This document shows, one piece after another, positions 4,520 to 31,136 of a stretch of DNA of 64,000 nt. A program made the position numbers and the translations under genes. The notes beneath the pieces were generated by a model. It was not told the DNA's origin, ran no database searches, and worked only from the letters and a program-made list of their open reading frames with translations. Position 1 is the first letter of the stretch; each line of letters begins with the position of its first letter. Origin of the DNA: Escherichia coli (GTDB taxonomy: Bacteria; Pseudomonadota; Gammaproteobacteria; Enterobacterales; Enterobacteriaceae); the NCBI RefSeq assembly GCF_003991155.1, contig NZ_CP031293.1; one strand, given 5' to 3'.

Positions 4520-4544
4520 ATAGCTGTGCAGATGGATAACGACA

Positions 4545-11480: not shown

Positions 11481-11496
11481 TGGTGCGATAATAGGA
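11481..11496. repeat. Distal att repeat: partial copy of thrW 3' end
   Basis: TGGTGCGATAATAGGA versus thrW 3' end TGGTGCCGATAATAGGAG at 31061-31078, same orientation. Confidence 0.55.
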
Positions 11497-11558
11497 ACAA
11501 TACACATAGGCGATAAGCTTTGTTTTTGTTGCCTTTTTTATTGTTCATTTTTTATAGA

Positions 11559-11578
11559 TACCCCCAAAAGTACCCCCA
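11559..11578. repeat. Arm-type motif TACCCCCAAAAGTACCCCCA near distal att
   Basis: Near-identical copy TACCCCCATAAGTACCCCCA at 30928-30947 near the thrW-proximal att. Confidence 0.4.
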
Positions 11579-11697
11579 TATCTTTTTCCGCCCCTGAAAT
11601 TTGGTTGTTATTCATACAGCATATCAGGCGGTAACGCTCTCCCTTTAACCCACTTATTGTATGATAGTGCTATCCCACAATAAGGAATCAGCCAGCC

Positions 11698-12057
11698 ATG
11701 AGAATGACCAGTCGCAAAAAAGAGATACTTAGCTACTTTGAACCGGATAACCTCGAATGGGTGACTGGTGAGATTGGTGCGCCGCCGTTCGATGTGTCGG
11801 GTGTGGCCTACCTGCTTCATGGCATGGTGTCGTTCGATAAGCGTCACCAGCTCGAATCAACCCGGCGAACACTGGAAAGCATGGTTGCTGGTGGACTGCT
11901 TGAGCGGGTGACAGTGTATGAATCGCGCCAGATACGGCGCGGCGGTGATACTAACGCAACGGTCGTGCGCTACGGTTTACCCGGTCAGTGCGCTGTTATG
12001 CGCGATACTGGCGGCGCTGACAACGCAATATCAGGTGAATACATGCGGGTCAGTTAA
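11698..12057 (+). CDS. Hypothetical protein (119 aa), island cargo
   Basis: ORF-track; convergent and overlapping stop with next gene; no recognised domain. Confidence 0.35.
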   Translation: MRMTSRKKEILSYFEPDNLEWVTGEIGAPPFDVSGVAYLLHGMVSFDKRHQLESTRRTLESMVAGGLLERVTVYESRQIRRGGDTNATVVRYGLPGQCAVMRDTGGADNAISGEYMRVS

Positions 12058-12592
12058 TAGCCTGCAATCTGTCGTTGATGCGGCTCAGGTCGTAAACCCG
12101 GCGTTCAATATCCAGCATCAGGAAATTGTGGATCTCGGCCTGCTCAGGATTATCAGACTCTCTGGCCTGTAATAGCAATTCATTGTAACCATGCAAGCCG
12201 CCTGAGTTTTCCGCCGGGGTGGTGCCTTTCCCACGCAGGCAGCTAATGGGCTGATTACTCGTATCGTGTGTTTGCTTCTCCAGCACAATGACGCAATCCC
12301 ACCAGTCGCCAAAGTCATACGTGTAAACCAGCTTGTCACCCTCATTCTGGAGCGCCGCCCATAGTGGCGTGATTGCCGCGTTACCCATGCTTTCATCCTC
12401 ACCCCATACGCGATACTCGCTACCTGGATCACCTTTACGCCCTTTCTCGAACATATACAGGTGTTCGTCATTCCAGCCAAAAGCTAACTGGATCACGGCA
12501 TGAAGTTTACTAAAGGGGATTTGCTCTGGAACCAGCACACGCCGCCATATAGGTGGTTTGCTGTCTCGGATGGTTATCTTTAGCTGGTACAT
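12050..12592 (-). CDS. pRiA4b ORF-3-like family protein
   Basis: 180 aa with signature MYQLKIT..PPIWRRVLVP...LHAVIQLAFGW...YTYDFGDWWDCVI typical of the plasmid pRiA4b ORF-3-like domain. Confidence 0.6.
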   Translation of the reverse strand: MYQLKITIRDSKPPIWRRVLVPEQIPFSKLHAVIQLAFGWNDEHLYMFEKGRKGDPGSEYRVWGEDESMGNAAITPLWAALQNEGDKLVYTYDFGDWWDCVIVLEKQTHDTSNQPISCLRGKGTTPAENSGGLHGYNELLLQARESDNPEQAEIHNFLMLDIERRVYDLSRINDRLQAIN

Positions 12593-12712
12593 GCAAATCC
12601 TGAATAAATGCGAATCGGAAGGATAACGATACTGACGTACTCACAATTCTGTAAAGGTGAATAAAGGAAATTTGCTTAATACGCATAAGTTACATGTGGA
12701 ATAATCCCATAT

Positions 12713-12898
12713 CTACCTGCGCGGCGCTGGCTTCTTCCACTGGTAGGCAGGTGCTCGCATCATTTCGCGGAACCTGTCGCGCCGGGCTATATCGGCATTA
12801 ACTGATCGTTCTATCTCCCGTTGATCTGCCTGTGTAAGCTGGTGGCCTCCGTGCTCAAGTTTGGCGATGGTCAATAAGGCTATTTCGCGTGGTGTCAT
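12713..12898 (-). CDS. Hypothetical small protein (61 aa)
   Basis: ORF-track only. Confidence 0.25.
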   Translation of the reverse strand: MTPREIALLTIAKLEHGGHQLTQADQREIERSVNADIARRDRFREMMRAPAYQWKKPAPRR

Positions 12899-13195
12899 AC
12901 GTCATACCCTCTGGAAGGATGAAACACGCCCGGATTAAATTTCATTTTTCGCGGGTATAAAAAAACGATGGGGCGGGCAGTCCCGGATAGTCAGGGCTGT
13001 AGAGATTTGACTACCCCCTCCCCACTGGATTCAGGTTACTGCTATTCCGTTAAGCGCTGCTTACGGGGATAGCTGCGTTGTGATTTTGACCATTCAGGTC
13101 GCCGCTATTTCCTCACCGATTGGGTGCTACGCGCGCGCGTACTTGTCCCGAAATACCAGAAACCGCCAGCCAGAGGATGATTTCCCTCTGGTGGT

Positions 13196-13477
13196 CTACC
13201 TTTGCCTCTTGCCGCCATTTAACCGGAAGGCGTTACCGTTCGGTTGCGCTATCCCCATGCGGTGTTGCGTTTCGGTAACAGCTTTATGCAGGTCGCCAAA
13301 TTCCTCAACCTTCACGGGCGGGCGCTTCACGTTCTCCAGACACGTTTCACGGCGGCGCTTTATCCATTCCCGATCATCGTCCTCGGTGCATAACAGCATG
13401 ACTTCCATCCATCGTGCGGCAGCTCTCCGGTATAGCCCTTTTGACTCCAGCTCTTCAGCTTTCCTGTCCCTTATCAT
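13196..13477 (-). CDS. PerC/Pch-family transcriptional activator-like protein
   Basis: 93 aa with ..ELESKGLYRRAAARWMEVM.. resembling the conserved PerC/Pch core. Confidence 0.55.
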   Translation of the reverse strand: MIRDRKAEELESKGLYRRAAARWMEVMLLCTEDDDREWIKRRRETCLENVKRPPVKVEEFGDLHKAVTETQHRMGIAQPNGNAFRLNGGKRQR

Positions 13478-13506
13478 TTCTGCCTCTCAGATTATATAGA
13501 TAAGCA

Positions 13507-13636
13507 AAAAGGTGTTGGTTCAGTTGGTTCAGTTGGTTCAATTTGTAAAGATCGTTGTTTTTATTGTGTTTTTTCTGAAATGTTGAACCAACATCAACTC
13601 ATTTTGAACCAACACAGCCCAGCTCTGAACCAACAA
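13507..13636. repeat. Iteron cluster A (GTTGGTTCA / TGAACCAAC repeats), left inverted repeat
   Basis: 13507-13550 is the exact reverse complement of 21756-21799; followed by AT-rich stretch and further TGAACCAAC-like repeats. Confidence 0.65.
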
Positions 13637-13748
13637 CACAGCGATAGCTTTGTGATTGGTCCGTTATTTTCTGGCTGATATTTGAGCGTATAACAGTGTT
13701 ATACAGTGGTATACTGTATGGATATTACTCACTGATATGGTCTTTGCA

Positions 13749-14192
13749 ATGAGCAAATCTAATCTGATCGCGTTCCGCATCCCATCTGAATTGCAGGATG
13801 AGTTTAATCGGTCTGTTCTCGCTTCTGGAGGGGATAAAACCTCCTGGCTTGTTGATGCGATTCGCATGAAGCTGGGACAGCCGGAAAAGTCTATTGATTC
13901 ACGAATGCTTGGGCTGGTGGAGCGCATGGAAAAAGCCGCTGCGTCGCTTATTGCCGGAAAGCCGAACATCCCACCAAAGCCATATAACGAAACGGCAGTT
14001 ATAAAGATCATTGCCGATACCATCCAACAGGGATTTGATAATGGGCGTGTGATAGCTGAACGGATCAATGAAGCAGGCTATCAAACAAAAGCTGGTAAAG
14101 CGTGGGATAAAGATATTTACAGCGCGTGGAAGCGTCAGGGAAGCAATGCTGAAAAGTTAAAAGCGGTGATTGATTGTAAGGTCAGCGTATAA
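13749..14192 (+). CDS. Putative ribbon-helix-helix DNA-binding protein
   Basis: N-terminus SKSNLIAFRIPSELQDEFNRSVLASGGDKTSWLVDAIRMKL is RHH-like; preceded by inverted repeat ATACAGT-N5-ACTGTAT at about 13700-13725; start 13737 or 13749. Confidence 0.4.
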   Translation: MSKSNLIAFRIPSELQDEFNRSVLASGGDKTSWLVDAIRMKLGQPEKSIDSRMLGLVERMEKAAASLIAGKPNIPPKPYNETAVIKIIADTIQQGFDNGRVIAERINEAGYQTKAGKAWDKDIYSAWKRQGSNAEKLKAVIDCKVSV

Positions 14193-14271
14193 ACATGAGT
14201 GCCCATTGGAAAGCTGCTTGGGCCAATACCTTTATACACCAGCAGGTGGTGACGATAGGTGAGGATTAGGC

Positions 14272-14493
14272 ATGAAAGGCAGAACGCCACACATTGAACA
14301 TCAAGCCAACCACTTCTCGGATGTTCGCAATGAGATGATTGCCATTCGCGGTGATATGCACGGCTTGGAGCGTCGAATTATTGATAAGATTGATGAAAAT
14401 AGAGATAAGGCCAGTGAAAATCAAAAGTGGATCATCGGCCTGTTGATTTTATCAATTCTTATCCCGCTACTTATCGCATTGGTCACAAAATGA
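14272..14493 (+). CDS. XhlA-like small membrane protein (coiled coil plus C-terminal TM)
   Basis: 73 aa; ..LERRIIDKIDENRDKASENQKWIIGLLILSILIPLLIALVTK matches XhlA/holin-like architecture. Confidence 0.4.
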   Translation: MKGRTPHIEHQANHFSDVRNEMIAIRGDMHGLERRIIDKIDENRDKASENQKWIIGLLILSILIPLLIALVTK

Positions 14494-15036
14494 ATATCCA
14501 ATGTGTATGCTGTCGATGCTACGCGCGCGTACTTGTCGCAAAATATCAGGCAAAGGCCAGATTCAGAAATTCGTGATAACCACCAGCACAACATGAGAGG
14601 TCATGTAACGCGATTTATCACACCAGATACATGTGATTGGTGTACCCGCATAAAACATCGTCATAGCGCGTCCTGTGCGCATATACGCCGATAATCAACA
14701 CATCACCACCACTCTGTCTCATGTAGAGAACAGTTTTATGGTACTCCCCTCCATCGTGCGCGTACTGGTCGGACGTAGTTGCAAAATTTTTTGCAACTGA
14801 TACCCCTCGCGCGCGTACTGGTCACGAAATTGGTGTTTTGCTGTGGCAGTGATATCAGAAAAATCTTCCTGTTTCACATAAAGCGGATATGCGCGTAATG
14901 TAACGGCCCCATCAACTGGGAGCGGATTTGAGCCCGAATGTGTAGGCAATGTCACTTAACGTTTGTCGCATACCTTCCAGAAAAAGCGATTCATGAATAA
15001 TAGGGGCATGAATGCCCGGCGTACCGGGCTTATTAG

Positions 15037-15735
15037 TTAATTTGGTGCTTTAGGGTCAACATTAAAAGTTATATCACCTTCTGTATTTTTCCCGGCATAG
15101 CTAGCGGCTATTCTCGCCAACCCTTTGTAATCAGCAATTCCATCAGACTGTTGCGAGACGACTGAGCTACCAACTTTCCATAACATATTAATCTGCCGAT
15201 TATTGAGATAAGCCTTGGCATCAAACGACTGGAGTATCACCCCTGCGCCGTAGAACGTGTCCGTCACAGTTGTGTTATACGCGCCAGTAATTCCATAAGT
15301 AGGCGTATAAACTGTTGTTGCCGTTCCAGTGGTATTAGCTGTACCGTAGCCACCACCATAACTATTGAACGTGGTGTTCGAGTTTCCGTACGTTGTTGCT
15401 GAGCTCACACCAGTTTGCCCGTATATTGGGATGGTTACATTACGAGTATTTGAAATGGCCCCGCTTCTCAAAAAGTTCAAGAGAATTACCTGGTCAGCCA
15501 ATTTTTCATCTTTAACTTGTGTATATCCTTGGCTTGATAAACTGGCGGCTACTACCGTAGCTATTTGAGTGTATTCAATCTGTTTGGTGTTCCAAAGTTC
15601 TTGGCTTGCGGGGATGATCAAGAACTTCTTACCGACAGATTGCCCGGAAGATAAAGCATTGACCGTTACTAACGGTTTTTGTACGCATCCAGCCAATAAT
15701 GACAGGGATAATATTAAAAGAAGATTTTTAATCAT
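15037..15735 (-). CDS. Lipoprotein, unknown function (Thr/Gly/Tyr-rich)
   Basis: Signal peptide with lipobox LLAGC; 232 aa. Confidence 0.6.
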   Translation of the reverse strand: MIKNLLLILSLSLLAGCVQKPLVTVNALSSGQSVGKKFLIIPASQELWNTKQIEYTQIATVVAASLSSQGYTQVKDEKLADQVILLNFLRSGAISNTRNVTIPIYGQTGVSSATTYGNSNTTFNSYGGGYGTANTTGTATTVYTPTYGITGAYNTTVTDTFYGAGVILQSFDAKAYLNNRQINMLWKVGSSVVSQQSDGIADYKGLARIAASYAGKNTEGDITFNVDPKAPN

Positions 15736-15885
15736 GATAATCTCACCTAAGAATTGCGTGGTTATAAATTATCATCACTGTAAGCGAATGTAAGCCACAG
15801 GCTCGTAATGTGATATGGAATTTTGATAGTTGGCTCAATATCAGTATGCCGTCCTTGGCTATTATGGTTTTGTTAGTTAGAGCGT

Positions 15886-18612
15886 CTATTCCCATTCGCT
15901 AACATCTTTCATGCCACTGAGGGTAGCTACAATCCCGGCCCTTGTCAGTTTCACGAATTCTTCAGCCCCAACGGCATCACGAATTGCTTTCATGGCAATT
16001 TTATTGGCCGAAAATCGTTTCTCTGCTGCGGCGATCGCTGCTGGTGATGCCCCTGCGCGCACTGCTTTTGTAGCTTCCTGAACGGCTTTCTCTATCGCAT
16101 ATCGACCACTTCTTGTCGCCCCAATCTTAGCCACAGCATTTCTTAGCGCGCCACCAGCAACCAAACCACTAATCGAACCAATTACACCACCGCCAAAGCC
16201 TCCAGCGATCGCACCTGACTGTTGAACTCCGTTCATAATCACGCCGACGATCTTTGGAAGGCCTGAATCGAGCGTTTTGAGAGCCTCAGTTGTTCTTCCC
16301 GTGCGCTCTACGTATCGCTGCGGTCTGGTACTGGCTTTAGCGAGTACACCGAACTCTTTCATCATTCTACCGAGATCTGGCGCATGACGACTGATGGCGT
16401 TTACATTCTGCTGGGTCATGAGCTTGGCAAAATACTGGATACCTGACTCTTCACCGATTCCTCCCTTCTCTCCCTGCGCCACAGCATGCTGAAGAATAGA
16501 TGCTATTGCAGGTTGGCGTTCTGCTTCCGGCAGCGCGGAGATAAGACGGTGAAAAGCTCCCGTTCCAGTGTTTGCGGATGCCTTAAGCGTATCGGCACCT
16601 TTTCTTACCATAGCGTCTGATGCGAGATCTCGACCAAAAACAGATTCGGCATTTTGTTTGGCGATAATGTAACTTTTAGAGAGATCGTTAGCTTTCTGCC
16701 ATTCTGTGAGGAAGTTTCCTTTTTCAGCCATGATGCGCATGTCATCAGTGATAGCTCTGCGCATTTCTCCGGCAATCCGGGCGGCATTGGCCTTACCTGC
16801 CCGGGTGTTTGCTTGTTCAGCATCAGCAAACTTAGCACGCCATGCCTTCATCCCGTCGAAGGTTATGCCGCCACCTTGGTTGTTGGCAGCCTGAAACTGT
16901 TTCATCTCCGGGCTGAGTGGAACATTGGCTGCTTTTTCTGCTTGGACGACAGCCATCCCATTACTCATTTTCATCCTTTCGCGTGGCATCGTGCTTCGCA
17001 GTTCTGCCCATGCCATATTCTCTGCTGTTTTCATATCACTGAGGCTCGCGATGATGCGCTCTTTAATTGCTGCGCTTTTTTCTGATGCGCTTCCAGACTC
17101 AGCACCGAAATCAGACAACTGCTTATTCAACTTTGAGGATATTTCATTGAAGGCCGTAAGGTGAGCATCCTGAACATTCCCAGGAGTTGATGCCAGAACA
17201 CCTTCTGCTTGGGCAATTCCACGACTACCTGAGCGCATTCCAGGCGTCAGGGTGTTGATATTAATACCAGTGATTTTCGCCGCCTTAGCGACATCATCTC
17301 TGACGTTTGATGCCTGCGATGCGATATGCTCTCGGCCTACGGCAGAACGCGCTGCTTTCGATACATCATTGGCGGTTTCCAGAGTATTTGCTGCCCCTAA
17401 CACATGGCCTGATTGATTTGTATTACTCCGCAATACATCTCGCATTACGTCACTGGCTGTCTGTCCGCTCTTTATTAAAGCGCGTGCTCCTAGCGATCCT
17501 GCTAGGCCAATACCTGTCTCTTTTGCTAGGTCTTCTGGGCTGATCTGCCCGTTCTTTTGGGCGTTCACCAATGTACCTGGCAGGTTTTCTGCCAACATAC
17601 TAGCCACCTTTGTGGCCGCACGTTCAGCACGTGGAGCGTTGGCAACTGAAGAAGCTGCGGTAGCTGCCTTTCCTGCACCTAATCCTGTAATAAGGTAAGG
17701 TGCTAGCTGCTCACCAGCCTGCGCGTATGGATCTGTAGGTTGGTCTACTGGGCGAAAGACAGGTGATATGGGCGTGTATGTGCCATCACCCACACCAAGC
17801 TTCTGAGCTGCCCATGCTCCGGCTGATTGCGCCGCATTGACTACCCCCACGCCTGCGTCCATTACATCAAACGGTATATTAGCAATCCCTCTGGCCATCT
17901 GCTCTGGCGCAGCTTTCAGTCCTGGCGAAAGATATTCCATCTCAGGATTAAGGTTAGACTTGGCTACTTGCTGCTGCGGTTCCCCGGCATTTTCATCGGC
18001 GAGAAACTGAGCTCTTTTCTGCTCCCATGAACTGGCTGTTGGTAGTCCTGCTTCTATGTTCTTAAATTGCTGACGTTTTGCTTCCCATGCAGAAATATCT
18101 CCCACCTGAGAGATTTCTTTATCAAGCTCTGAGTAGTCAGGCTGCTGAAGATTGCGATGTTGACTGGTTTGTGCAAACTGCAAGATTTCACTGTCATCAG
18201 GGATTATTCCGGCATCTGCAAATTTACTTACGTAATTAGCCGTTTCATCTGGCAGTGTAGATTTACCGTTTCTGACGGCATTAATACGAGCATAGCCAGA
18301 ATTATACCCAGCCAATGCCATACCTATATCACCAAATCGCTTCATTCCTTTATTGAGATGGTTTGCTGCGATATCCATTTGCTTTTCAAATGGCAGTGAG
18401 CGCGGATCTGTTCCACGATAACCAGCATCACTCATTACTGAGGGCATCAGTTGAGCAAATCCTCTAGCTCCTTTCGGTGACTCGGCACTTCCGTTACCAC
18501 TAGATTCATTGCCAACTAATGTTTCCATCGTCCCTGATGGGAAACCATATTTTTCATCGAGATGACGGGAATAGGCTTTCTGTTTTTCTGTCAGTTGTGC
18601 CATCATTGCCAT
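15886..18612 (-). CDS. Large Ala-rich protein with N-terminal lytic transglycosylase (SLT) motif; phage internal virion/ejection protein-like
   Basis: 908 aa; N-terminus contains ESSGNG...GFAQLMPS...AGYNSGYARI (family-1 LT ES / GLMQ / AYNxG motifs); rest is long Ala/Gly-rich. Confidence 0.6.
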   Translation of the reverse strand: MAMMAQLTEKQKAYSRHLDEKYGFPSGTMETLVGNESSGNGSAESPKGARGFAQLMPSVMSDAGYRGTDPRSLPFEKQMDIAANHLNKGMKRFGDIGMALAGYNSGYARINAVRNGKSTLPDETANYVSKFADAGIIPDDSEILQFAQTSQHRNLQQPDYSELDKEISQVGDISAWEAKRQQFKNIEAGLPTASSWEQKRAQFLADENAGEPQQQVAKSNLNPEMEYLSPGLKAAPEQMARGIANIPFDVMDAGVGVVNAAQSAGAWAAQKLGVGDGTYTPISPVFRPVDQPTDPYAQAGEQLAPYLITGLGAGKAATAASSVANAPRAERAATKVASMLAENLPGTLVNAQKNGQISPEDLAKETGIGLAGSLGARALIKSGQTASDVMRDVLRSNTNQSGHVLGAANTLETANDVSKAARSAVGREHIASQASNVRDDVAKAAKITGININTLTPGMRSGSRGIAQAEGVLASTPGNVQDAHLTAFNEISSKLNKQLSDFGAESGSASEKSAAIKERIIASLSDMKTAENMAWAELRSTMPRERMKMSNGMAVVQAEKAANVPLSPEMKQFQAANNQGGGITFDGMKAWRAKFADAEQANTRAGKANAARIAGEMRRAITDDMRIMAEKGNFLTEWQKANDLSKSYIIAKQNAESVFGRDLASDAMVRKGADTLKASANTGTGAFHRLISALPEAERQPAIASILQHAVAQGEKGGIGEESGIQYFAKLMTQQNVNAISRHAPDLGRMMKEFGVLAKASTRPQRYVERTGRTTEALKTLDSGLPKIVGVIMNGVQQSGAIAGGFGGGVIGSISGLVAGGALRNAVAKIGATRSGRYAIEKAVQEATKAVRAGASPAAIAAAEKRFSANKIAMKAIRDAVGAEEFVKLTRAGIVATLSGMKDVSEWE

Positions 18613-19922
18613 CCCTTAAGTTTTGCCTGATAGTAACTTTCCGGCAGATAGCCATGTGCGGTCACATAATCCTTAACCAGTGAAGGATCCTGCAACAGCA
18701 TTTTGGTATCAGTTTCTTCGTCCTTAGATTTGGTTACAGGAATACCGAGCCCGGCAATCTGTCGTTTCTGCATTCGAATAATTACGTCCTGCGCTTTATT
18801 CAACTCTCGCAAAAATGCCTCATTGCTGGTTGCTGACTTAATGCCATTTTGAGATTGCATAAGGGCAGCCCTTTCCCCTTCGGTTGGGTTAGAGCCAAAA
18901 GTCCCTTTGAGGCTAGGCAGAATAACCTTTAGGTTGTATTCATCAGCTTTGGCGCGTAGGCTTCGTGTGTCTTCTGCTACATCAGGAAGGAATCCAAACC
19001 CCAGCGTCAGGGGGTTATAGTTCTGCGAGCGGGTAACGGCCGAAGGATGTTTCCCTACAATTCCCGCCAGTTCATGACCCACTTCAAGCGCAGAGTTCAA
19101 GGAGTCGATGTTACCTACAACAGTATTAATTTTATCGTTCATCTTCTCCACTTTCGCCTGCTGTACCTTGCTCAGTTCAGCATTGAGCTTGTCTCTCTCG
19201 ATGTCATTTTGAGCACGTCCAAGTCGTGCTTTCAGAACCATTTCTCTCGTGCGTAGTTGGTTATCGGATAGGACTTTGAACTGCTCCATATCGAGACGTC
19301 GATTACCCTGTTCCGCATTAACCTGAGCATTATATGCGGATGTATCTGCGTTCTGCTGTGCAATGCTCTGCCCTTGCTGCTTCTCTTGAACACTAAAGTA
19401 ACTATTTGGATCAGCATGGAGGTGGATGAGGTCAGTGATTCTGTTGAATTCCTGTGGGTCATTCTGCCAAGACTGATAAACCTCTTCAGCAGGAAGACCA
19501 AATCGCTGTAATACTGGATTTGCCTGCTGAATGGCCTTCTGCATGGTCAGTGGATCTCCAGTTTGTGACGCAAGACGCAGATTCATGGCAGCGTCAGCGG
19601 TCTGTCGATTTTGCTCAGCATCAATGAATCCCATCTGTTTTTGAGAATCAGCCATAAACTGGGGATACTGGGCCATTAACTTCTGCACGCCAACACGATC
19701 ATTATTAGCTACCGCACTACCCAACCGTGCCTGATATTCTTTTAACTGCTGGGAAATTTGCGCCTGCTGATTAATCTCAGCAACGCCTCTTAGCCCCTGT
19801 AGCGCCATTAAACCTACGTTTGGCTGCTGCTGATACTGCACAGGCTGAGGAACGGAAGAACGAGGAGCATTATCATTTTGCGGTGCCATGCTAGGCAGCC
19901 CGCCAAGTTGCCATGTCGCCAT
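18603..19922 (-). CDS. Gln-rich coiled-coil protein, ejection-protein-like
   Basis: 439 aa; overlaps downstream gene start (operon). Confidence 0.45.
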   Translation of the reverse strand: MATWQLGGLPSMAPQNDNAPRSSVPQPVQYQQQPNVGLMALQGLRGVAEINQQAQISQQLKEYQARLGSAVANNDRVGVQKLMAQYPQFMADSQKQMGFIDAEQNRQTADAAMNLRLASQTGDPLTMQKAIQQANPVLQRFGLPAEEVYQSWQNDPQEFNRITDLIHLHADPNSYFSVQEKQQGQSIAQQNADTSAYNAQVNAEQGNRRLDMEQFKVLSDNQLRTREMVLKARLGRAQNDIERDKLNAELSKVQQAKVEKMNDKINTVVGNIDSLNSALEVGHELAGIVGKHPSAVTRSQNYNPLTLGFGFLPDVAEDTRSLRAKADEYNLKVILPSLKGTFGSNPTEGERAALMQSQNGIKSATSNEAFLRELNKAQDVIIRMQKRQIAGLGIPVTKSKDEETDTKMLLQDPSLVKDYVTAHGYLPESYYQAKLKGWQ

Positions 19923-20599
19923 TAGAATCCAAGCCCCCCAACAAGACCAATAAGCCCACCACCAATAGCGCCGGCCGCAGTTCCTATTCCAGGAACAACG
20001 GAACCAAGTTGCGCACCCGCTAAAGCGCCTGATGCTGCCCCACCAATACCACGCGCAAGACTGGATGGCTGCTGCGCCTGACCTGCACGAATAGCGCCAA
20101 GCCCCTGCAAGAGTTGTCCGGTATTATTGGCGTAGTTTTGCCCTGCCGTTGCCTGCCCTGATGCCGCATTCATCCCGACATTTAGCAGGTTTCCATAATT
20201 TTGCATTTGCCCACTAAGCCAATTGTTATAAAGCATGGGCGCAATGGAAGATAACTGGTTACTGGTAGCTGTTGAGCCAAGCCCCCCGGTAGCTTCTGCT
20301 GAGACAAGGTTCTGATAACGGGCCTGATCTGCCTGTGTTTTATATAAACCAGAACCAAAGAAATCATTCGCGGCTTTATTCTGCCCTTCCAGAGTCATCA
20401 GTCCTTGCAGTTGTTGTAAAGCAGGCAATCCGACTTCTGCATACGGCTTGAGATTATTCATCACCGTATTCCACTGCTCGCGCTGCAAATCAATTGCCTG
20501 CTGCTGGGCCTTCGCCTGAGCTTTAGAGGCACCACCATCACCGCCTTTTTCGTATACGGCACGATTGAGATGTTTATGAGCTATATGGGTAATTAACAT
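19922..20599 (-). CDS. Gly/Ala-rich protein with hydrophobic C-terminus, ejection-protein-like
   Basis: 225 aa; C-terminal GxxxG-rich hydrophobic segment; contiguous with neighbours. Confidence 0.45.
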   Translation of the reverse strand: MLITHIAHKHLNRAVYEKGGDGGASKAQAKAQQQAIDLQREQWNTVMNNLKPYAEVGLPALQQLQGLMTLEGQNKAANDFFGSGLYKTQADQARYQNLVSAEATGGLGSTATSNQLSSIAPMLYNNWLSGQMQNYGNLLNVGMNAASGQATAGQNYANNTGQLLQGLGAIRAGQAQQPSSLARGIGGAASGALAGAQLGSVVPGIGTAAGAIGGGLIGLVGGLGF

Positions 20600-21054
20600 T
20601 CGCTGAATTCCTTATATTGTTGCCGAGTTAACTGATAAAGCGTTACGCCGACGGGTTTACCACATCTGATATAAGCATCATCAAGGTGACCAACACGGGT
20701 AGCGCCAAGCAAACGGATAATTGCCCGTCCATATTTTGTGGTGTCAGGAACCATAGTGATGCTGTTAAGGAATGGTGAGTTTTCGAGAAGCCATTTGCAG
20801 AATAATCGATGCCCTTGCAGTGCATATTCACCACGGAATCCGGGGTCGTACACCGCATGGCATTCAACAACGCTATGCCAGAAGTTACGCACTTCATGAA
20901 CGCCAGCCAGCACTAATCCTTCGTAGATGCCGAGATATACCGCATCAGGCTTGATGTAGTACGTGTGCCCCGGCTCAACAATATTTTCGGTATTGCCTGG
21001 CTCGTTAAGAAAGGCCTGTAATCGCACAGGGTTATCAATAAATTTTAGTTCCAT
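20593..21054 (-). CDS. Hypothetical protein (153 aa), first large gene of the module
   Basis: ORF-track; overlaps next gene start. Confidence 0.4.
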   Translation of the reverse strand: MELKFIDNPVRLQAFLNEPGNTENIVEPGHTYYIKPDAVYLGIYEGLVLAGVHEVRNFWHSVVECHAVYDPGFRGEYALQGHRLFCKWLLENSPFLNSITMVPDTTKYGRAIIRLLGATRVGHLDDAYIRCGKPVGVTLYQLTRQQYKEFSEC

Positions 21055-21070
21055 GCGATGCCATCCATTT

Positions 21071-21232
21071 TCACATACAGCCTGCCAGCGCCTTATCTAT
21101 TAACCCTCGTGCAATTTCATGCAGAGTTGGCGCTACTCCAATTCCTGATTTTTTACGCTGCTCTTCCTGAATTTTCTTTATCGCTTCCATTTGCTTCTCA
21201 CTTATCAATACCGGCTTTACTGAAATAGCCAT
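21071..21232 (-). CDS. Small RHH-like protein (about 53 aa)
   Basis: Internal start MAISVKPVLISEKQMEAIKKIQEE... within the 96-aa track ORF; beta-strand plus two helices pattern. Confidence 0.3.
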   Translation of the reverse strand: MAISVKPVLISEKQMEAIKKIQEEQRKKSGIGVAPTLHEIARGLIDKALAGCM

Positions 21233-21685
21233 AACGCCCCCCTTAGAACTGTATAAAACAACAGTTATTATAGTTTCACAAATCGCAATATTCATCATCG
21301 TAATTGCAAAATATGAAACAAATAGCACAAAAAAATGCCACCGCTCAGTAGCTGGTGGCATCGTTCTGTGTGTCAGGTTTTGACAGGTTTTTTATGGACT
21401 CTAAAAACTATATTTATGGTATCGCATTACTCTTCACGGCAGGTGCTTTTCAGTTCTGCCCTTGCTTCTGGCTCCATTGGTAATTTGATTCGCGATCAGC
21501 TATGCGGATGGTTTGCTGAACAGGCATAACAACTTCTCAGAGGCTGTTTTTTGAACTACGAAAATTTCGTAGTGCTCACTTTCAAAAACGTCACGCCCTT
21601 GTACACAGGATTTTACGAAAGTCTCGTAAAACACTCTCTGATGCCAGCCAGGTGTTGTGCGCATCAATTCAGTCACATTGTGTCG

Positions 21686-21799
21686 GTTCAAAATACCGTG
21701 TTGTTGGTTCAGTGTTGGTTCAATAAAAAGAATAAAATCCTTATAAAACAATACACTTTACAAATTGAACCAACTGAACCAACTGAACCAACACCTTTT
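21686..21799. repeat. Iteron cluster B (TGAACCAAC repeats), right inverted repeat
   Basis: Three tandem 9-mers at 21762-21793; degenerate copies at 21686-21722; immediately 3' of the primase gene. Confidence 0.65.
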
Positions 21800-21817
21800 C
21801 TACGCACATGAAGAAGC

Positions 21818-24577
21818 TCATTCTTCAGATGAGTTATAATCTCCTGGCTGGTAATTGAGTACATAAACGTTTATTTGTCGTCCCTGAATACGTGGTGATT
21901 TTCTTTGGTATCCACGACCGCTGTTTGGTGGGGTTAGCATCCCGGCTTTTTTCAACACTTCAGCAAACTGTTTTGCGTTGAAACCACATGCGATCTCCTT
22001 TTCAAATGTGGCCGGGAATGTGTAGAAAATCATTGGGCTTTCGTCATGTTCTCCACGCTGACGGTATCCGGCTAAATCTTTGATGGGCAAATCTGCCGGG
22101 CTGTATGGAAATGGTGCAAAACGGCTAAGCCCATAGGCATTAAGAAATGCCTCCGTTTGTTCAATAATCTGCTGATGCTCTTTGTTACCTGTGCCGAACT
22201 CGCGCAACCATGCGTTATAGCTGTGCTGTATCGCATCACGGCATGTCTGAGCATCCCAGCCTGTTACAACCTCGCCTAACAACAATGCGGCCTCCAGAAT
22301 GGCAAATCGCGCGGCTACACGGTGAACCTGCTCACCATAATCGGATGGGATCAGGCTTCTCCATCTGCTTTCGCAATCACGAACGGTTTTAATAGCCTGT
22401 TGCTGGTGGTGTGCCAGCCATTTAATCCACTCACGCCCGGACGCGCCGTGGTGATGCTGGTAAGCGTCTTTCAGTGCGTCTGCGTGCTGTTTTCCGTTCT
22501 GGTAATCGTGAAAGCGTACTGCTTTACTCAACGGAATATTCAGCAGTCGCACCAGTTGCCCGGCTTTGGTTTTTCGCCCGGAAGTAGCGATAAATGTTTC
22601 TAAATCCATTTCTCCGGTGCTGATTGCCACTGTACGCCAGCGTTTTAGATCCCGGTTTCCACCATCTTTAGCGCCTTGCAGTTTCCCTACACCGTTAAAT
22701 AACGCATAGGCAGACTGTGAAACGCTGACAGGATCAGCGCCCTGACCAACTTCATCAAGCGGCATTAGTCCGTCATTGTGGGCGGCGGCCTCATTTGCCA
22801 GCCCCAGCGCGGTTCCGTACCACGTCAGCCGCAGTAAATCAGGGTTGCCGTATAAGCTGCTCGCCACGTTTGCCGTGGTGGTCTTACCTGCGCTCGACTG
22901 CTCATAGAAATGAATGCCGAACCCGTCAGCGCCCACCAGCCCAATCAATGGCGCTGCCAGTGCTGCGCCGATCCCGGTCATCATTGAATAGTTACCAAAG
23001 GCCAGACGCGCCACGTTATCACGCCAGCTTTTCGCGCTCCCTGAGACGGTATATCCGGCTGCGGCTGAGCTTCTCCCGCTGAACAGCACAGGATTTTCAG
23101 GTGTTCCGATGATTTCCCCATCAGGCATGATGTACGCTCCGCATTGCCAGCCAGTGGCATGAGCAACACGCCACAATTCACGAGAGCCACTGCGTTGTAG
23201 CCAGTCTGCCAGTATTGCTCTGAGGCTGCTTTTGGTCGTGACATTTACCCCACCAGCTTTAAGTGTGCGCCATCCTTCACGTTCACCAATATCAGCCAGT
23301 GGAATGGCAGCGGTTGTCGGCGTTTCAGAACCAAACGACAGCCAGCGAAGAATGAGATACTGGTCTTTATCGTCTCTGCCAGTACCGATAACGCTTAACG
23401 GAGAACATAACCAGCTTTCGTTATTGATGATTTCTCCACTCTGGCTGTCAGCTCTCGGAGATACCCAATAAATACCATCCTCGCGGCTTTCTATTCTTGG
23501 TTTCAGTGGGTCGGTATCCATAACCTTAAAATCGCTTCCCTCAATGGTCTGTGGCTCCTGTTTCACGCCATTACCCTGTGGTTGGTACATTGACTTATTG
23601 AACGCTTCTGTGGCGCATTTAATGCCGTGTTTTTGGTGGTAATCATTCCAGTCTGCTTTGTGATCTGTCGGGGGTAATGCCACCCATCCAGAAACAGATA
23701 AAGCTGCTTTTTCTGCTGCTATTCTCCCCGTGTTTTGTCTTCCTTCGCTGTGGTCGTTATCCGCAGCAATGATGATTTGTGCTGAAGGAAATTTATCCCG
23801 CAGTACCTGGGCGACATATAACAGGTTCCCGGCATCAATCGCCGCCACTGTCAGCGCCTCTGGACGAATTAAATGGGCAGATAATGCCGTTGCCAGACCT
23901 TCTGCGATTAAGATGCTCTGTGTTGTTTCTGGTGCGTTTATGGCGTGATATGCCCCCCGCTTTGCTGAACCTGTCAGGAGTCTTTTTTCACCATGTGAGG
24001 TAATAGTCTGTGCTGCTGTGACTGCGCCGGATTTATCCACCAGCGCCAGCAACAGAGATCCATCGGGCAACACGGGGAATGTAAAATCACCTACCCCTTT
24101 CGCAACCAGATAATCAGATTTGCCGTTTACAGCCTTTCTGCGCATGTCATCAAACTGACGGGAAAACGTATCCCGTCTTTGTTGTTCGTCCTTCTCTGCC
24201 CTTTTCAGGCGCTCCTGTTCGCGTCGCTGGCGCTCGGTTTCCAGTTGTTCCCGTTTCTGGCTGGTGGCTTCTGGTGTTTCCGTTGTCCGGTAATCAATAC
24301 CCAGAACATCAGCGGCAAGAAGCGCCGCCTCTGTTGTGTCGCAGTTATTTACGCGTTTAATTAAATCCAGCCCATCACCAGCGCCGCACTGATTACAGAT
24401 GAAGCTACCGCGCCCGTTGTCATCGAACCGGAATCGATCTTTGCCCCCACATGCAGGGCAGGGAGCATGACGGCGCGGAGAGTCAGGGACATTTATGTTC
24501 AGGCAGCCCAGCACATGAGGCCAGTTGTTTTCAGACGCACTGATAACCTGACGGATAAGATCAATGTTTCGCATCAC
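21818..24577 (-). CDS. P4 alpha-like primase-helicase (zinc finger + toprim + P-loop NTPase)
   Basis: 919 aa; CPACGG..CNQCG zinc-binding motif, toprim-like IIIAADNDH, Walker A SSAGKTTT and Walker B LMPLDEV. Confidence 0.8.
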   Translation of the reverse strand: MMRNIDLIRQVISASENNWPHVLGCLNINVPDSPRRHAPCPACGGKDRFRFDDNGRGSFICNQCGAGDGLDLIKRVNNCDTTEAALLAADVLGIDYRTTETPEATSQKREQLETERQRREQERLKRAEKDEQQRRDTFSRQFDDMRRKAVNGKSDYLVAKGVGDFTFPVLPDGSLLLALVDKSGAVTAAQTITSHGEKRLLTGSAKRGAYHAINAPETTQSILIAEGLATALSAHLIRPEALTVAAIDAGNLLYVAQVLRDKFPSAQIIIAADNDHSEGRQNTGRIAAEKAALSVSGWVALPPTDHKADWNDYHQKHGIKCATEAFNKSMYQPQGNGVKQEPQTIEGSDFKVMDTDPLKPRIESREDGIYWVSPRADSQSGEIINNESWLCSPLSVIGTGRDDKDQYLILRWLSFGSETPTTAAIPLADIGEREGWRTLKAGGVNVTTKSSLRAILADWLQRSGSRELWRVAHATGWQCGAYIMPDGEIIGTPENPVLFSGRSSAAAGYTVSGSAKSWRDNVARLAFGNYSMMTGIGAALAAPLIGLVGADGFGIHFYEQSSAGKTTTANVASSLYGNPDLLRLTWYGTALGLANEAAAHNDGLMPLDEVGQGADPVSVSQSAYALFNGVGKLQGAKDGGNRDLKRWRTVAISTGEMDLETFIATSGRKTKAGQLVRLLNIPLSKAVRFHDYQNGKQHADALKDAYQHHHGASGREWIKWLAHHQQQAIKTVRDCESRWRSLIPSDYGEQVHRVAARFAILEAALLLGEVVTGWDAQTCRDAIQHSYNAWLREFGTGNKEHQQIIEQTEAFLNAYGLSRFAPFPYSPADLPIKDLAGYRQRGEHDESPMIFYTFPATFEKEIACGFNAKQFAEVLKKAGMLTPPNSGRGYQRKSPRIQGRQINVYVLNYQPGDYNSSEE

Positions 24578-24932
24578 CGTACCCCACGTGGTCTATAGCG
24601 TTTGCGATATGGCTAACCAGCATCTGCCACTTGGTTATTCCGTAATCAGTCAGCATGCCATCATTGTTTAGCCACATATCAAATTCAGCGGTTGTCGCAA
24701 GTTTCCACTTATCGCCGTGGACAGTCCTCATTGCTGGGTACATGAATGCGCAAATCAGATCACAAACATCTGACGGCTTCAGAGATGTAGTAATGGTGCG
24801 TCCCTCTGGCGTCTGAATTGCCATTTTCTCTTCACCAGTAGAATGAAGGTTATGAATCCACACAGCACCAGCAATCTTTGCCACCTGCTCTCCGATTGCG
24901 GAGCTAAGCGCCATTTCTGCATTTTCACGCAT
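24561..24932 (-). CDS. Hypothetical protein (123 aa)
   Basis: ORF-track; overlapping stops/starts with neighbours. Confidence 0.35.
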   Translation of the reverse strand: MRENAEMALSSAIGEQVAKIAGAVWIHNLHSTGEEKMAIQTPEGRTITTSLKPSDVCDLICAFMYPAMRTVHGDKWKLATTAEFDMWLNNDGMLTDYGITKWQMLVSHIANAIDHVGYGDAKH

Positions 24933-25266
24933 GAGAACCTCCCGCTACAGTTGCGCCCATGTCATTAACCATGCTTTGCCATATCTCACGCCCGACGTCA
25001 GTCAATCCGTCCTTAGTGACGCAACGTTCAAGAAGCTCGATCCCCACGGTTTCCCACTGCGGGTAGAACACTTTCATGGCTGCCAGTGTGTAGCTATCGA
25101 TCAGGCTGCGAACGCCTTTTACTCCATTGACGATTTCCACACGGACGGCCTCGCCGTCCGCATCAACCATGAAATAGTCCCCGCCGCTGGTGGAGGTAAT
25201 GTGGTTATACAGTGCCGACGCATACTTATTTGCCAGCGCATTCAGTCGGAAATTTTTAGTAATCAT
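24925..25266 (-). CDS. Hypothetical protein (113 aa)
   Basis: ORF-track. Confidence 0.35.
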   Translation of the reverse strand: MITKNFRLNALANKYASALYNHITSTSGGDYFMVDADGEAVRVEIVNGVKGVRSLIDSYTLAAMKVFYPQWETVGIELLERCVTKDGLTDVGREIWQSMVNDMGATVAGGSHA

Positions 25267-25276
25267 GGCTCCATCC

Positions 25277-25879
25277 TCAGTGCGTCACTGGTTCCGCTGG
25301 CATGCCGTTTTCATTCAGTTCAGCTATAAAGCTGTTGTGAAGTTCAGCAAGCGTTTCACGCCCAAATGGAGTCAGTGCTCCTTGTTCCACATCCATCATG
25401 GCTCTGTAGAAAATAATGGCGCGTTCTGTGCCAGACTCGATGCCAAAACGTTCTATCATCGCGCCCTCAATGTTGTTTGCCATAGCGAGGCGCTCTGCTA
25501 CTGGATACAGCGGCATGGCGACGATGCCGTTGGAATAAACAGCCACTTCGGAAGGATTGCCAGTATCATCAATGATGCTGACAGTGCCGTTTTCCTCTCT
25601 CATTTCCAGCATGAATACTGTTGCGATCAGCCATCTCCACATAATGACGTTATGCTGTGATGTGTAATCGAAATATCCCTGGTTACCGCCATCGGCAATA
25701 GCGAGATGTATTGACATACCTTCATCTGGTTTATCGTCATAATCCCCGGCATCCAGACGATTTACGGCATCAATATATGAGATGGCCTCAACGCGTTCTG
25801 TCATGCCATCGTTGCTGCGGTACATGATGTTTACGCCGTCAGGCGTTGCTTCTGCATGGAAAGTTAAGAAATTATTCAT
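25277..25879 (-). CDS. Hypothetical protein (about 200 aa)
   Basis: ORF-track frame 25277..25984; likely start at internal Met (MNNFLTFHAE...). Confidence 0.35.
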   Translation of the reverse strand: MNNFLTFHAEATPDGVNIMYRSNDGMTERVEAISYIDAVNRLDAGDYDDKPDEGMSIHLAIADGGNQGYFDYTSQHNVIMWRWLIATVFMLEMREENGTVSIIDDTGNPSEVAVYSNGIVAMPLYPVAERLAMANNIEGAMIERFGIESGTERAIIFYRAMMDVEQGALTPFGRETLAELHNSFIAELNENGMPAEPVTH

Positions 25880-26093
25880 GTTTCGCCTCGCCTGAATGAT
25901 TCTGTAACTCATATTTGCCCAACAATTCGTCCGCTTCCTGAATAGCTTCTGGTACGCCATTGAGCAGTGACATAACCGCGCCAATCATTAACTTGTCTCT
26001 GTTGCTGGGGCTGGCCCCTTCAAGCCAGAACCCTAAAACAGTCTGAACCTGTTCGATGCGACATTGCGCTTCAATGAGCTGGATGTTGGTCAT
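25872..26093 (-). CDS. Hypothetical small protein (73 aa)
   Basis: ORF-track; 4-nt overlap with upstream gene. Confidence 0.3.
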   Translation of the reverse strand: MTNIQLIEAQCRIEQVQTVLGFWLEGASPSNRDKLMIGAVMSLLNGVPEAIQEADELLGKYELQNHSGEAKHE

Positions 26094-26353
26094 TTCGCAC
26101 TCTCCACATCGATTAAACCGATATCTATCAGGGAGGTAACTTTTTGTAGCCAGCTATTGATTACTGTCGCCTGTTCCCCTCCCACCGAGGGAACAATCTC
26201 ATTCATCACATGAACCAGACCTGTGCGCGCTCTGGTAAGCCGTTCAGTCGCGCAATCTGCGGGAGTGAATGTGTCTGGATATGGCTCTTCACGCCCCAGC
26301 AATGATTCAATTTCCAGCTCACACGGATGACGATAAATTAAGTTGATATTCAT
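26090..26353 (-). CDS. Hypothetical small protein (87 aa)
   Basis: ORF-track; ATGA-type overlaps. Confidence 0.3.
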   Translation of the reverse strand: MNINLIYRHPCELEIESLLGREEPYPDTFTPADCATERLTRARTGLVHVMNEIVPSVGGEQATVINSWLQKVTSLIDIGLIDVESAK

Positions 26354-26544
26354 TTTTCACCCCCAAGAATTACCAGCTCGGCACGGGCATCGTTAACCAA
26401 AGATGAGCACGCTTTAATCGCATCCACGACATCAGCAGCGTCCATTTCTTCAGCCGAAAGACTGACAGCAACCAGGACAGCCGCTGCTTGCTCGATTAAT
26501 TGAAGTGCGGACGTAAGTCGAGGGGCATTAATTGAGTTATTCAT
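26350..26544 (-). CDS. Hypothetical small protein (about 64 aa)
   Basis: Internal start [10 protein letters not shown]... in track ORF 26350..26601. Confidence 0.3.
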   Translation of the reverse strand: MNNSINAPRLTSALQLIEQAAAVLVAVSLSAEEMDAADVVDAIKACSSLVNDARAELVILGGEK

Positions 26545-27604
26545 TGGTTGCCCCCGTTTTTCCTGGCATTTCGCCACCTTCCAGCAGGAAATGAACGTCA
26601 CGAACGGCGAGATCCAATATCGCGAGTAACGCCTTCAGTCTTTCGTCTCGTGAGGGAGAGTTGCTCACCAGAATGTCGTTAATCACTTCTGTCAGTGTGA
26701 TGATCTGGCTTGTGCGTTCGAGGGGATCCATATGCACATCGTAGGTTTTAATCATGAGCCACCTCCATGCGGATACGACCAGCAAAAAAGCAGACGTGAT
26801 CGCGCACCAGAGAACGGCGAGCATCGCGTTCAGACTCGGCAGCAATATGATGAATTTTGGCGGTAATTGTCGAGCAATCGCGGCGAACTGCGGCGATAAT
26901 CCAGATAAATTGCGGTTTTTGGGTAGGGGTAGTAGCCAGCATGTGGCAGCCTCCATTCGATAGCATGTAACGCTACCACCGGAAACGCCAATTTCGCTGG
27001 TGGTAGCCCAGACAGGGTTGGCGTAACCGGCTCGAATGGATACCGGCGCTTCCGAAGAAGCCCCTGCCTGAGCCACCATTGATTGACAAAGGCGCTGGAT
27101 TATACACCAACGCCCAAAAAATGGGTGAGTCAGACCTACGACATAAAAAAAGACGCTCGGCGCGTCATATGTCGCCATTCGATTTACTAGGACGCCAATC
27201 CCGGCACCCGTTTTATGAGGTGCCTTATAACCATAAACCGTGTTGCCGCATAACGGCAAGCTCTTTTTTATGGACTCCGAAAACTCGCTATTGGAAGCAC
27301 CAGATGCACAGTACATCGCGCTCATTTCGTTAACGTCACGCGCGTGGACGAATGTTTTTGTGGAGTCACTACACGAGCGGAAGACATCATCTACGACCAG
27401 AAATTTTCTGGCGCAGCCGCTGACCTTCTCAATGCTAATATCATCGCCCGAGATTTCTGATATGGTTAAGGCATCCGTTCCGACCACCAGCAAATGATAA
27501 ACTTTGCTTGTATCTGCTGTATTAATGCCTGACTTTGCCGTCATATTGCTGGATTTTGGCGACATACCAGCCAGTGAAAATGTCTTCTTCTGGACGGTTA
27601 GCAT
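26537..27604 (-). CDS. Long open frame of uncertain gene structure (possibly a 72-aa gene 26537..26755 plus upstream gene)
   Basis: 355 codons without stop; composition atypical in middle part; start overlaps stop of upstream gene. Confidence 0.25.
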
Positions 27605-28606: not shown

Positions 28607-28618
28607 TTTCAGTCTCCG

Positions 28619-31060: not shown

Positions 31061-31136
31061 TGGTGCCGATAATAGGAGTCGAACCTACGACCTTCGCATT
31101 ACGAATGCGCTGCTCTACCAACTGAGCTATATCGGC
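31061..31136 (-). tRNA. thrW: tRNA-Thr (anticodon CGU)
   Basis: Reverse complement GCCGATATAGCTCAGTTGGTAGAGCAGCGCATTCGTAATGCG...GGTTCGACTCCTATTATCGGCACCA. Confidence 0.9.

Follow-up and report, generated by a model that had tools for sequence, protein, structure and literature searches.

What does a perfect inverted repeat do on either side of a block of accessory genes, when one of its arms lies directly behind a primase-helicase gene? The question is raised by a 64,000-nt stretch of Escherichia coli DNA (contig NZ_CP031293.1, assembly GCF_003991155.1), referred to here as the window, which carries a phage-inducible chromosomal island (PICI) of the EcCIMP1 type, ~19.6 kb in length (11487-31077), at a tRNA-Thr gene. 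The initial annotation of this locus had offered several roles for the repeats: a P4-style ori with a crr-like second site, operators for neighbouring regulators, or the ends of a mobile or invertible cassette. The evidence presented below favours the first of these, in the form of a split, mirrored replication origin that would be read by the primase-helicase of the island, Pri-Rep.

Anatomy of the mirrored modules

Script comparison confirmed that 13507-13550 and 21756-21799 are exact reverse complements of 44 bp each, with three tandem units per arm, as first noted. In a repeat search the pair could be extended to 55 nt at 93% identity, with 8183 nt separating the arms. The window contains 12 copies of the unit GTTGGTTCA, where 0.53 would be expected; a count of 12 was reached in 0 of 100 shuffles, and 11 of the 12 copies fall inside two modules of ~125 bp. 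Read from the outer end to the interior, each module consists of AAAAGGT, three contiguous copies of GTTGGTTCA, ATTTGTAAAG with further AT-rich DNA, and three opposed units. The features of the two modules and of the adjoining gene are as follows.

13507..13634, plus strand: distal (left) origin-like module; three tandem iterons, 43-bp AT-rich spacer, three inverted iterons
13507..13550, plus strand: left arm of the perfect 44-bp repeat (AAAAGGT, three GTTGGTTCA, ATTTGTAAAG), an exact match to the right arm
13514, 13523, 13532: tandem units of the left module
13541-13583: AT-rich spacer of the left module, 43 bp, 77% A+T
13584, 13605, 13626: inverted units of the left module, 21-bp spacing
21681..21799, minus strand: proximal (right) candidate origin module, mirror image of the distal one, 18 bp past the primase stop
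21756..21799, minus strand: right arm of the perfect 44-bp repeat, an exact match to the left arm
21766, 21775, 21784: tandem units of the right module
21723-21765: AT-rich spacer of the right module, 43 bp, 84% A+T
21714, 21703, with a degenerate GTCGGTTCA at 21681: inverted units of the right module
21818..24577, minus strand: Pri-Rep primase-helicase (Zn-ribbon, Toprim, DUF927 and C-terminal domain; Pfam)

The spacer, which includes ATTTGTAAAG, is thus of the same length in both modules. The inner units are spaced by 21 and 21 bp in the left module and by 11 and 21 bp in the right, whose third unit is degenerate. A gap of 18 bp separates the right arm from the stop codon of the primase gene (21818-21820). 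The distal module lies 8.2 kb from the proximal one, so it is not directly 3' of pri-rep. In published origins of Staphylococcus aureus pathogenicity islands (SaPIs) and PICIs, 6-12 iterons lie directly 3' of rep around an AT-rich centre, two or more on each side and in opposite directions (PMC9371898; PMC6092414 Fig. 2). The arrangement of opposed iterons around a central AT-rich region was found in both modules, each with three units per side, and the right module agrees with the published definition in all respects.

Over 70 complete, independent E. coli genomes have an identical structure, and the 44-mer was found in 524 of 5426 complete E. coli genomes at a median of two places per genome; the repeat is therefore not an assembly artefact, a concern that had been raised at the outset. 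Genomes with a single copy of the 44-mer are accounted for by decayed islands such as that of E. coli E2863 (NZ_AP018802.1, 331026-355069), in which only the distal arm, perC and pRiA4b are left beside unrelated island genes. A search of Rfam over the modules returned nothing credible, the sole match there being a spurious microRNA (E 0.46), and a scan with the sigma-70 consensus called no promoter around either module, including the region 13100-14300. GC skew along the island was driven by coding strand and was uninformative.

The Pri-Rep primase-helicase and the iterons

The product of the gene that precedes the proximal module is a protein of 919 amino acids with a strong match to DUF927 (Pfam, E 5.6e-47). 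Its N-terminal 359 amino acids share 33% identity with the alpha protein of P4, and the remainder, the helicase and DNA-binding half, gave no alignment to that protein. A match to PDB chain 8tch, deposited as 'pathogenicity island protein' (E 1.8e-11), covers residues 403-814, and a weaker one was obtained with 5dgk, 'active helicase'. Because P4 alpha aligns at the N-terminus only and these structures match the helicase half, Pri-Rep is by sequence a P4-alpha-like primase fused to a SaPI-Rep-like helicase, as described for the PICIs of Gram-negative bacteria (PMC6092414). The earlier description of this gene as a P4-alpha-like primase-helicase consequently holds for its primase half and not for its helicase half, which is of the DUF927/SaPI-Rep type. 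In an AlphaFold2 (AF2) model the last 185 residues (predicted local distance difference test score, pLDDT, 74) form a C-terminal domain of beta-alpha-alpha-beta-beta pattern, the best PDB match of which was the winged-helix oriT-binding protein TcpK, a weak one (E 0.046).

For comparison, 64 loci encoding relatives of Pri-Rep were fetched, one genome per species, and 47 of these were scanned for iterons. In nearly all of the 47, which belong to many genera of the Enterobacterales, an iteron cluster begins 19-60 bp past the primase stop (27-60 bp when determined by exact 8-mer count). At least eight iteron sequences were distinguished among the relatives, namely TGAACCAAC, TGAGACAAC, TGAACCGAC, ACGGGTTA, GTGGGTTA, TGGGATAA, TGGGCTAA and AACCGACC; each element has one type, with which all of its sites agree. 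Over most of their length, proteins of the TGAGACAAC type are as similar to those of the TGAACCAAC type as the latter are to one another. Only six of 919 aligned columns fully separate the TGAACCAAC-type proteins (20 sequences) from the TGAGACAAC-type proteins (six sequences), and four of the six are clustered at residues 892-897, which read RKS-PRI in the former and GRV--RE in the latter. In the AF2 model these residues lie in a loop between the last strands of the C-terminal domain. Since iteron type changes together with residues 892-897, the comparison points to Pri-Rep as the reader of the iterons through this co-varying C-terminal motif.

The number of sites is variable in some relatives. 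Seven tandem iterons are present in an Erwinia metagenome-assembled genome (L048, 3988-4050), an indication that tandem iteron number can grow, and in a Yersinia pekkanenii locus (L030) the whole module occurs three times in direct orientation around a disrupted primase gene, at -5712, -1130 and +51 relative to the primase end.

Compact and split architectures

Three arrangements were found among the relatives: compact, split, and single, the last comprising nine loci with no second module within 10 kb. In the compact form, exhibited by eight TGAACCAAC-type loci and by most loci of the other iteron types, the blocks bound ~200-350 bp that hold one AT-rich region and, on its far side, a GC-richer spacer. 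The origin of EcCICFT073, as read from the CFT073 genome, is compact, and a second distant site was not found in that genome. In the split form, two full modules lie 1.2-8.9 kb apart. This form was found in 12 elements, three from E. coli and nine loci from eight other genera (Lonsdalea, Rosenbergiella, Chimaeribacter, Cedecea, Serratia with two, an Erwinia metagenome-assembled genome, Enterobacter and Leclercia), in all of which the second module is on the opposite strand and the tandem blocks are outermost. EcCIMP1 bears both inverted modules, 8.5 kb apart. In the EcCIMP1-like island L001 (NZ_CP148430.1, 12,152 bp), which has an integrase and a split origin and was deposited as a circular 'plasmid' of a chicken E. 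coli, they are 1.9 kb apart with only the conserved genes orf53 and orfX between them; L001 is possibly an excised, replicating satellite.

Alignment of 11 distal modules, from E. coli and the eight other genera, revealed near-invariant iterons and ATTTGTAAAG and a fixed 21-bp spacing, with variable sequence between the iterons. As judged from the alignment, this pattern is the footprint of protein-binding sites under selection. The outer backbone is common to split and compact elements: in Enterobacter locus L007, perC (92% identical) and pRiA4b (98%) directly follow a compact origin, and in Lonsdalea the compact and split forms (L025 and L010) have the same outer flanks. This shared backbone argues that the arrangement in the window is a compact origin opened up, with genes in its middle and an AT-rich region in each half.

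Several further signals accompany the modules. The box TATATA(G/T)AT at 13491-13499, 10-16 bp outside the distal tandem block and facing perC, is conserved in the eight other genera; it may be an outward promoter with a -35 element overlapping the outermost iteron, and it is not called by the consensus promoter scan. The motif CTGGCTGGCA, ~30 bp inside the last proximal iteron (~21634-21643), and the motif (T)CACATGCGTAG, between the primase stop and the tandem block (21800-21817), are conserved across genera at equivalent positions (L005, L007, L018, L019, L023, L025, L034 and L036), and the iteron model accounts for neither. Two palindromes, CTACGAAAATTTCGTAG and TTTTACGAAAGTCTCGTAAAA, are present within 21540-21625, in the 450 bp of non-coding DNA between the proximal module and the terminator-like hairpin at 21337-21352.

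Identity of the two arms

Variants shared by the two modules of one element were observed outside E. coli, GTCGGTTCA being common to both modules in Serratia L023 and GTTGCCTCA to both in Enterobacter L052. The length of the identical tract varies among three close E. coli elements: the window has 44 bp and the 12-kb element 55 bp, and in EcCIMP1 a single mismatch at the outer edge is followed by 48 bp of identity. The tract ends at different points in the three, and either module appears to have served as donor. These module-shared variants and differing tract ends are the mark of repeated short-tract gene conversion between the inverted copies, in addition to selection on the iterons, a reading that bears out the remark on recent gene conversion made in the initial annotation.

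A probable split, mirrored origin

Taken together, these data are best explained if the two modules are a split, two-site replication origin of the EcCIMP1-type satellite, analogous to the ori and crr of P4, with arms kept alike by gene conversion; a probability of roughly 0.6 is assigned to this reading. Among the roles first proposed, that of an ori with a crr-like second site fits best, given that both modules are complete, that one is just 3' of the primase gene and that iterons and Pri-Rep co-vary. Each 44-bp arm would be the outer tandem iteron block of a complete origin module, whose inner iterons are spaced by whole helical turns and whose AT-rich 43 bp should be easily melted. The C-terminal domain of Pri-Rep would recognise the 9-bp iterons, after which the protein would open the AT-rich stretch, self-load and prime synthesis, in the manner of the Rep/ori pairs of SaPIs and of E. 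coli PICIs. The module directly past the pri-rep stop would be the canonical origin, and its distal mirror image a second Pri-Rep site, acting either as a second origin or as a cis partner like the crr of P4. The accessory genes would now lie between the halves of a formerly compact PICI origin, and short-tract gene conversion together with selection for Pri-Rep binding would keep the arms identical. From the sequence comparisons it is highly probable that both arms are origin iterons bound by Pri-Rep; that the distal module contributes positively to replication is put at about an even chance.

Several points weigh against this reading. EcCICFT073 replicates from pri-rep and one compact origin (PMC6092414), so a distant second site is not generally required, and nine TGAACCAAC-type relatives have no second module within 10 kb, although for one of them, L037, the partner is probably just past the fetched flank. 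The TGAGACAAC group is a single close clade, so that the co-variation amounts essentially to one evolutionary event. With the model score and TcpK match given above, the winged-helix assignment of the C-terminal domain is weak. The description of EcCIMP1 by Pick et al. (2025, PMC11773190) mentions neither an origin nor iterons.

In an extension of the split-origin reading, the two modules might form one functional bipartite origin, bridged by Pri-Rep with the accessory block looped out, and the conserved inverted modules might also be homology anchors through which cassettes are swapped between satellites by double crossover without deletion. P4 alpha is reported to bridge ori and crr with looping. 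This extension is tentative and on balance doubtful. Were it true, the cassettes exchanged would be the ejection-protein operons and the slots for Abi or ImmA/IrrE genes, the long-puzzling crr of P4 would be a remnant of a PICI-type origin module, and origin architecture would be linked to cargo turnover in satellites.

The 44-bp arm is found in about one in ten complete E. coli genomes, usually twice, and the family spans the Enterobacterales. No mapping of an origin for the EcCIMP1 family was found in the EcCIMP1 paper or in the literature searched; the present analysis places that origin at the modules described here, with predicted specificity-determining residues in Pri-Rep and an unusual split, mirrored layout. 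No description of a split or duplicated PICI origin was found in the literature searched, the coverage of which was incomplete and is not proof of novelty. As a simple, testable system, the layout lends itself to asking why certain satellite replicons, P4 among them, depend on two widely separated initiator-binding sites. A further consequence is that accessory genes, for virion ejection proteins and in a defence-gene slot, sit inside the origin region, which may bear on cargo exchange.

The island and the genes around the modules

The remaining features of the island that are referred to here are given below.

11487..11496: distal att core GATAATAGGA, left island end, the same 10-bp core as published for EcCIMP1 (PMC11773190)
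13196..13477, minus strand: gene of a perC-family regulator, reading outward from the left module (RefSeq annotation of the identical STEC383 locus; PHROG 994/10396)
13690..13722, plus strand: tandem GTTATAC/GGTATAC repeats upstream of orfX
13749..14192, plus strand: orfX, conserved inward-reading inner gene, 147 amino acids
14494..15036: variable slot of the accessory block, between orfX and the 232-amino-acid gene
15037..21054, minus strand: cargo, an open reading frame (ORF) of 232 amino acids and a P22-type ejection-protein operon (PHROG 770, 917/2534, 598, 651)
21071..21232, minus strand: orf53, conserved small inner gene beside the proximal module
21337..21352, minus strand: hairpin resembling an intrinsic terminator, between the proximal module and orf53
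31061..31136, minus strand: tRNA-Thr gene with the proximal att core at 31068-31077, right island end

Assignment to the EcCIMP1 type follows from an integrase at tRNA-Thr, the att core TCCTATTATC, and alpA, an antirepressor gene, pri-rep and perC in the published order. The region is 100% identical to a locus of E. coli STEC383, in which the island lies between tRNA-Thr/proA and the pao/yagU region. Counted from the tRNA, the gene order there is integrase, a small helix-turn-helix (HTH) gene adjoining it, an AntA/B antirepressor gene, ash, an Icd-like gene, the gene of the 919-amino-acid TOPRIM/DUF927 primase-helicase, the ejection-protein block, two small plus-strand genes, perC and pRiA4b-ORF3. 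The backbone and cargo proteins that were compared are 97-100% identical in amino acid sequence to those of EcCIMP1, except for orfX and orf73, both of which EcCIMP1 lacks. In EcCIMP1 of strain MP1, which has no annotated orfX, an HTH gene (L068, 13402-13560) replaces the two, and by its position and orientation it is taken to be the alpA_1 of PMC11773190. Excision of EcCIMP1 and its transfer by the P22-like helper phage Kapi1 have been demonstrated experimentally (Pick et al. 2025, PMC11773190), and the Kapi1 genome contains zero iterons.

The interval between the modules is bounded by two conserved inner genes, orf53 at the proximal end and orfX at the distal end. In Escherichia it also holds the P22-type 14-7-20-16 operon, and in other genera unrelated cargo lies between the modules. 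The start of orfX is 115 bp from the distal module. The N-terminus of its product has a beta-alpha-alpha pattern, and its resemblance to ribbon-helix-helix (RHH) proteins is unconfirmed: searches of Pfam, PHROG, NCBIfam and PADLOC returned nothing for orfX, its AF2 model was mediocre (pLDDT 71), and Foldseek gave no significant fold match. Inward-reading RHH-like genes had been proposed at both ends of the cassette; the gene at the left end, 13749-14192, is present, and the right end has no annotated or conserved inward gene. The GTTATAC/GGTATAC repeats are likely to be the operator or promoter of orfX itself, and equivalent CTGTCTTAC repeats precede orfX in L014, L015, L017, L018, L019 and L034, whether or not iterons are nearby. 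On the outer side of the left module, perC starts 30 bp from the arm.

In the window the variable slot holds orf73 and 540 bp of non-coding DNA, and in other E. coli it is filled with a gene for an Abi protein or with genes for ImmA/IrrE and a hypothetical protein (L069, 1304-2167; L070, 1694-2656). A repeat of 15-28 nt containing GCGCGTACT(G/T)GTC was noted in four copies, one of them just 3' of perC (13132-13159) and three in the variable slot (14522-14549, 14756-14770 and 14808-14835). A perC-like pseudogene was considered as the source of the short repeats at 14522-14835 and rejected, no protein similarity being found; likewise, a 78-amino-acid ORF at 14719-14955, with which two of the copies overlap, bore no similarity to PerC. 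The GCGCGTACT repeats may be recombination anchors or gene remnants.

The cargo operon encodes gp16-like (with a lytic transglycosylase), gp20-like, gp7-like and gp14-like products. Along the 14-7-20-16 operon (15886-21054, minus strand) amino acid identity to Kapi1 drops steeply, from 84% for the gp14-like product (055) and 58% for the gp7-like product (056) to 26% for the gp20-like (057) and 25% for the gp16-like product (058), and the lytic transglycosylase of the gp16 homologue is an extra N-terminal domain. The satellite may replace the injected proteins of its helper in its own particles. On the other side of pri-rep, Rfam matches to C4 antisense RNA (79.5 bits; 26996-27083, minus strand) and isrK (60.5 bits; 27146-27223, minus strand) fall inside an annotated 'ash family' pseudogene and directly upstream of the Icd-like gene. 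This region looks like an RNA-based immunity module of the P1/P7/P4 type in a PICI.

Alternative explanations

The distal module might bind Pri-Rep without promoting replication and serve as a control site, through handcuffing (intramolecular pairing) with the proximal origin or titration of Rep, in the way of the additional iteron sets of plasmids P1, F and R6K, or through Rep-dependent control of the outward perC and inward orfX promoters. It is well known from iteron plasmids that a second iteron cluster can limit initiation; moreover, the module lies within the divergent perC/orfX intergenic region, a TATAAT-like box is kept across genera 10-16 bp outside its tandem block, and EcCICFT073 manages with one compact origin. 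Pure titration or operator function would, however, have no need of a full AT-rich unwinding region and a 3+3 opposed layout, which are kept over the eight other genera. In addition, the consensus scan of 13100-14300 gave no sigma-70-like promoter, and it is hard to see what a satellite that must amplify in a burst would gain from negative control of its copy number. A purely regulatory distal module is considered unlikely. It is improbable that the module is a functionless by-product, left when accessory genes landed in a compact origin and kept similar to its partner solely by gene conversion. Such a history would agree with the evident conversion tracts and with the finding of the same outer flanks in compact and split forms (Lonsdalea L025 and L010; L007 and the window), but the distal modules form a conserved lineage of their own across the eight other genera: the iterons are intact, their 21-bp spacing is fixed, and a spacer rich in A+T is present. 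In Lonsdalea, Chimaeribacter and Leclercia, furthermore, the modules share iterons but not the adjacent sequence, and conversion alone is therefore insufficient to explain their conservation.

The two other roles that had been suggested for the repeats fare worse. As operators of neighbouring regulators they would be bound by PerC or by the product of orfX, whose start codons lie close to the distal module (30 bp outside the arm and 115 bp from the module, respectively) and the second of which has the beta-alpha-alpha N-terminus. Yet in every relative orfX is preceded by tandem repeats of its own, with a -10-like box, and in L017, L019 and L034 it is far from iterons; PerC does not track iteron type, being 80-94% identical to that of the window in the TGAGACAAC elements L007, L008 and L043 (55% in L016); and no regulator gene, RHH-like or otherwise, adjoins the proximal module. 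The operator hypothesis is accordingly regarded as very improbable. The hypothesis of a transposable cassette with the arms as its terminal inverted repeats, or of an invertible segment with the arms as its recombination sites, is largely refuted. Perfect 44-bp inverted repeats around a discrete block of strain-variable content are what recommends it. When E. coli genomes were checked for inversion of the 8.2-kb segment, as had been proposed, no inverted orientation was found: an artificial inverted junction gave 0 full-length matches in the 655 matching genomes (of 5426). No transposase, invertase or recombinase was found in the block by annotation, PHROG or NCBIfam, and the bases flanking the arms, AAGCA and CTACG, differ, so that there is no target duplication. 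Relatives have the same arms ~200-350 bp apart without cargo, and the arms are built of the same unit as the inner origin iterons. The split origin remains the preferred reading.

Comparison with known systems

EcCIMP1 and the element in the window agree in island family, integration site, att core, cargo and the possession of both modules, and differ in the HTH gene that EcCIMP1 has where the window has orfX and orf73. For EcCICFT073, Pri-Rep and its origin have been found to drive plasmid replication (Fillol-Salom et al. 2018, PMC6092414). Its origin likewise has iteron sets around an AT-rich region directly 3' of pri-rep, with inverted tandem iterons at both outer ends, but all of this lies within ~230 bp, with one AT-rich region in all, GTCTACC as the iteron and another primase allele; in the window the ends are 8.2 kb apart, an AT-rich region is present in each, and accessory genes lie between them. 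The Rep of SaPIs is a self-loading helicase, the C-terminal winged helix of which reads the iterons (PMC9371898). Iterons just past rep, an AT-rich centre and opposed iteron sets are shared with the SaPI Rep/ori system, as is the match of Pri-Rep to 8tch, whereas SaPI iterons are of 5-6 nt and a single origin has been described, with no description of a second, distant inverted copy.

Iteron plasmids offer a further parallel. P1 incA, F incC and the alpha and beta-gamma sites of R6K are additional initiator-binding repeats at some distance from the origin, the initiator mediating the interaction between the two. Unlike the modules described here, these sets are not known to have an AT-rich unwinding region of their own or an opposed layout, their effects are mostly negative, and their initiators are unrelated Rep proteins.

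In P4 two cis sites with the same iterons lie kilobases apart, and crr is directly 3' of the primase-helicase gene; in the annotation of NC_001609 crr is at 4291-4590, the alpha stop at 4636, and ori 4.5 kb from crr. The biochemistry of ori and crr was reportedly described by Flensburg and Calendar in 1987 and by Ziegelin and co-workers in 1993. Like the modules of the window, crr has tandem iterons of 9-bp period, a gap of ~35 bp and then inverted iterons; the iteron cores share GTTCA, and the N-terminal primase domains are homologous (33% identity). In contrast, crr consists of two direct 120-bp repeats, where the modules of the window are single and mutually inverted, and the ori of P4 is upstream of the replication operon and not across an accessory block. 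P4 ori also has type I and type II repeats, and a second repeat type was not seen in the modules of the window. The initiator is not P4 alpha, since only the N-terminal 359 amino acids align and the rest is DUF927/8tch-like, and the P4 hallmark genes sid, delta and psu are not in the annotation of the island. Because similarity to alpha ends at the primase domain, the modules lack 120-bp direct repeats and the second site has another position, the split-origin island is, on this sequence evidence, not a member of the P4 system. By analogy, a single module taken by itself would be an ordinary PICI origin, and it is the pair that most resembles P4.

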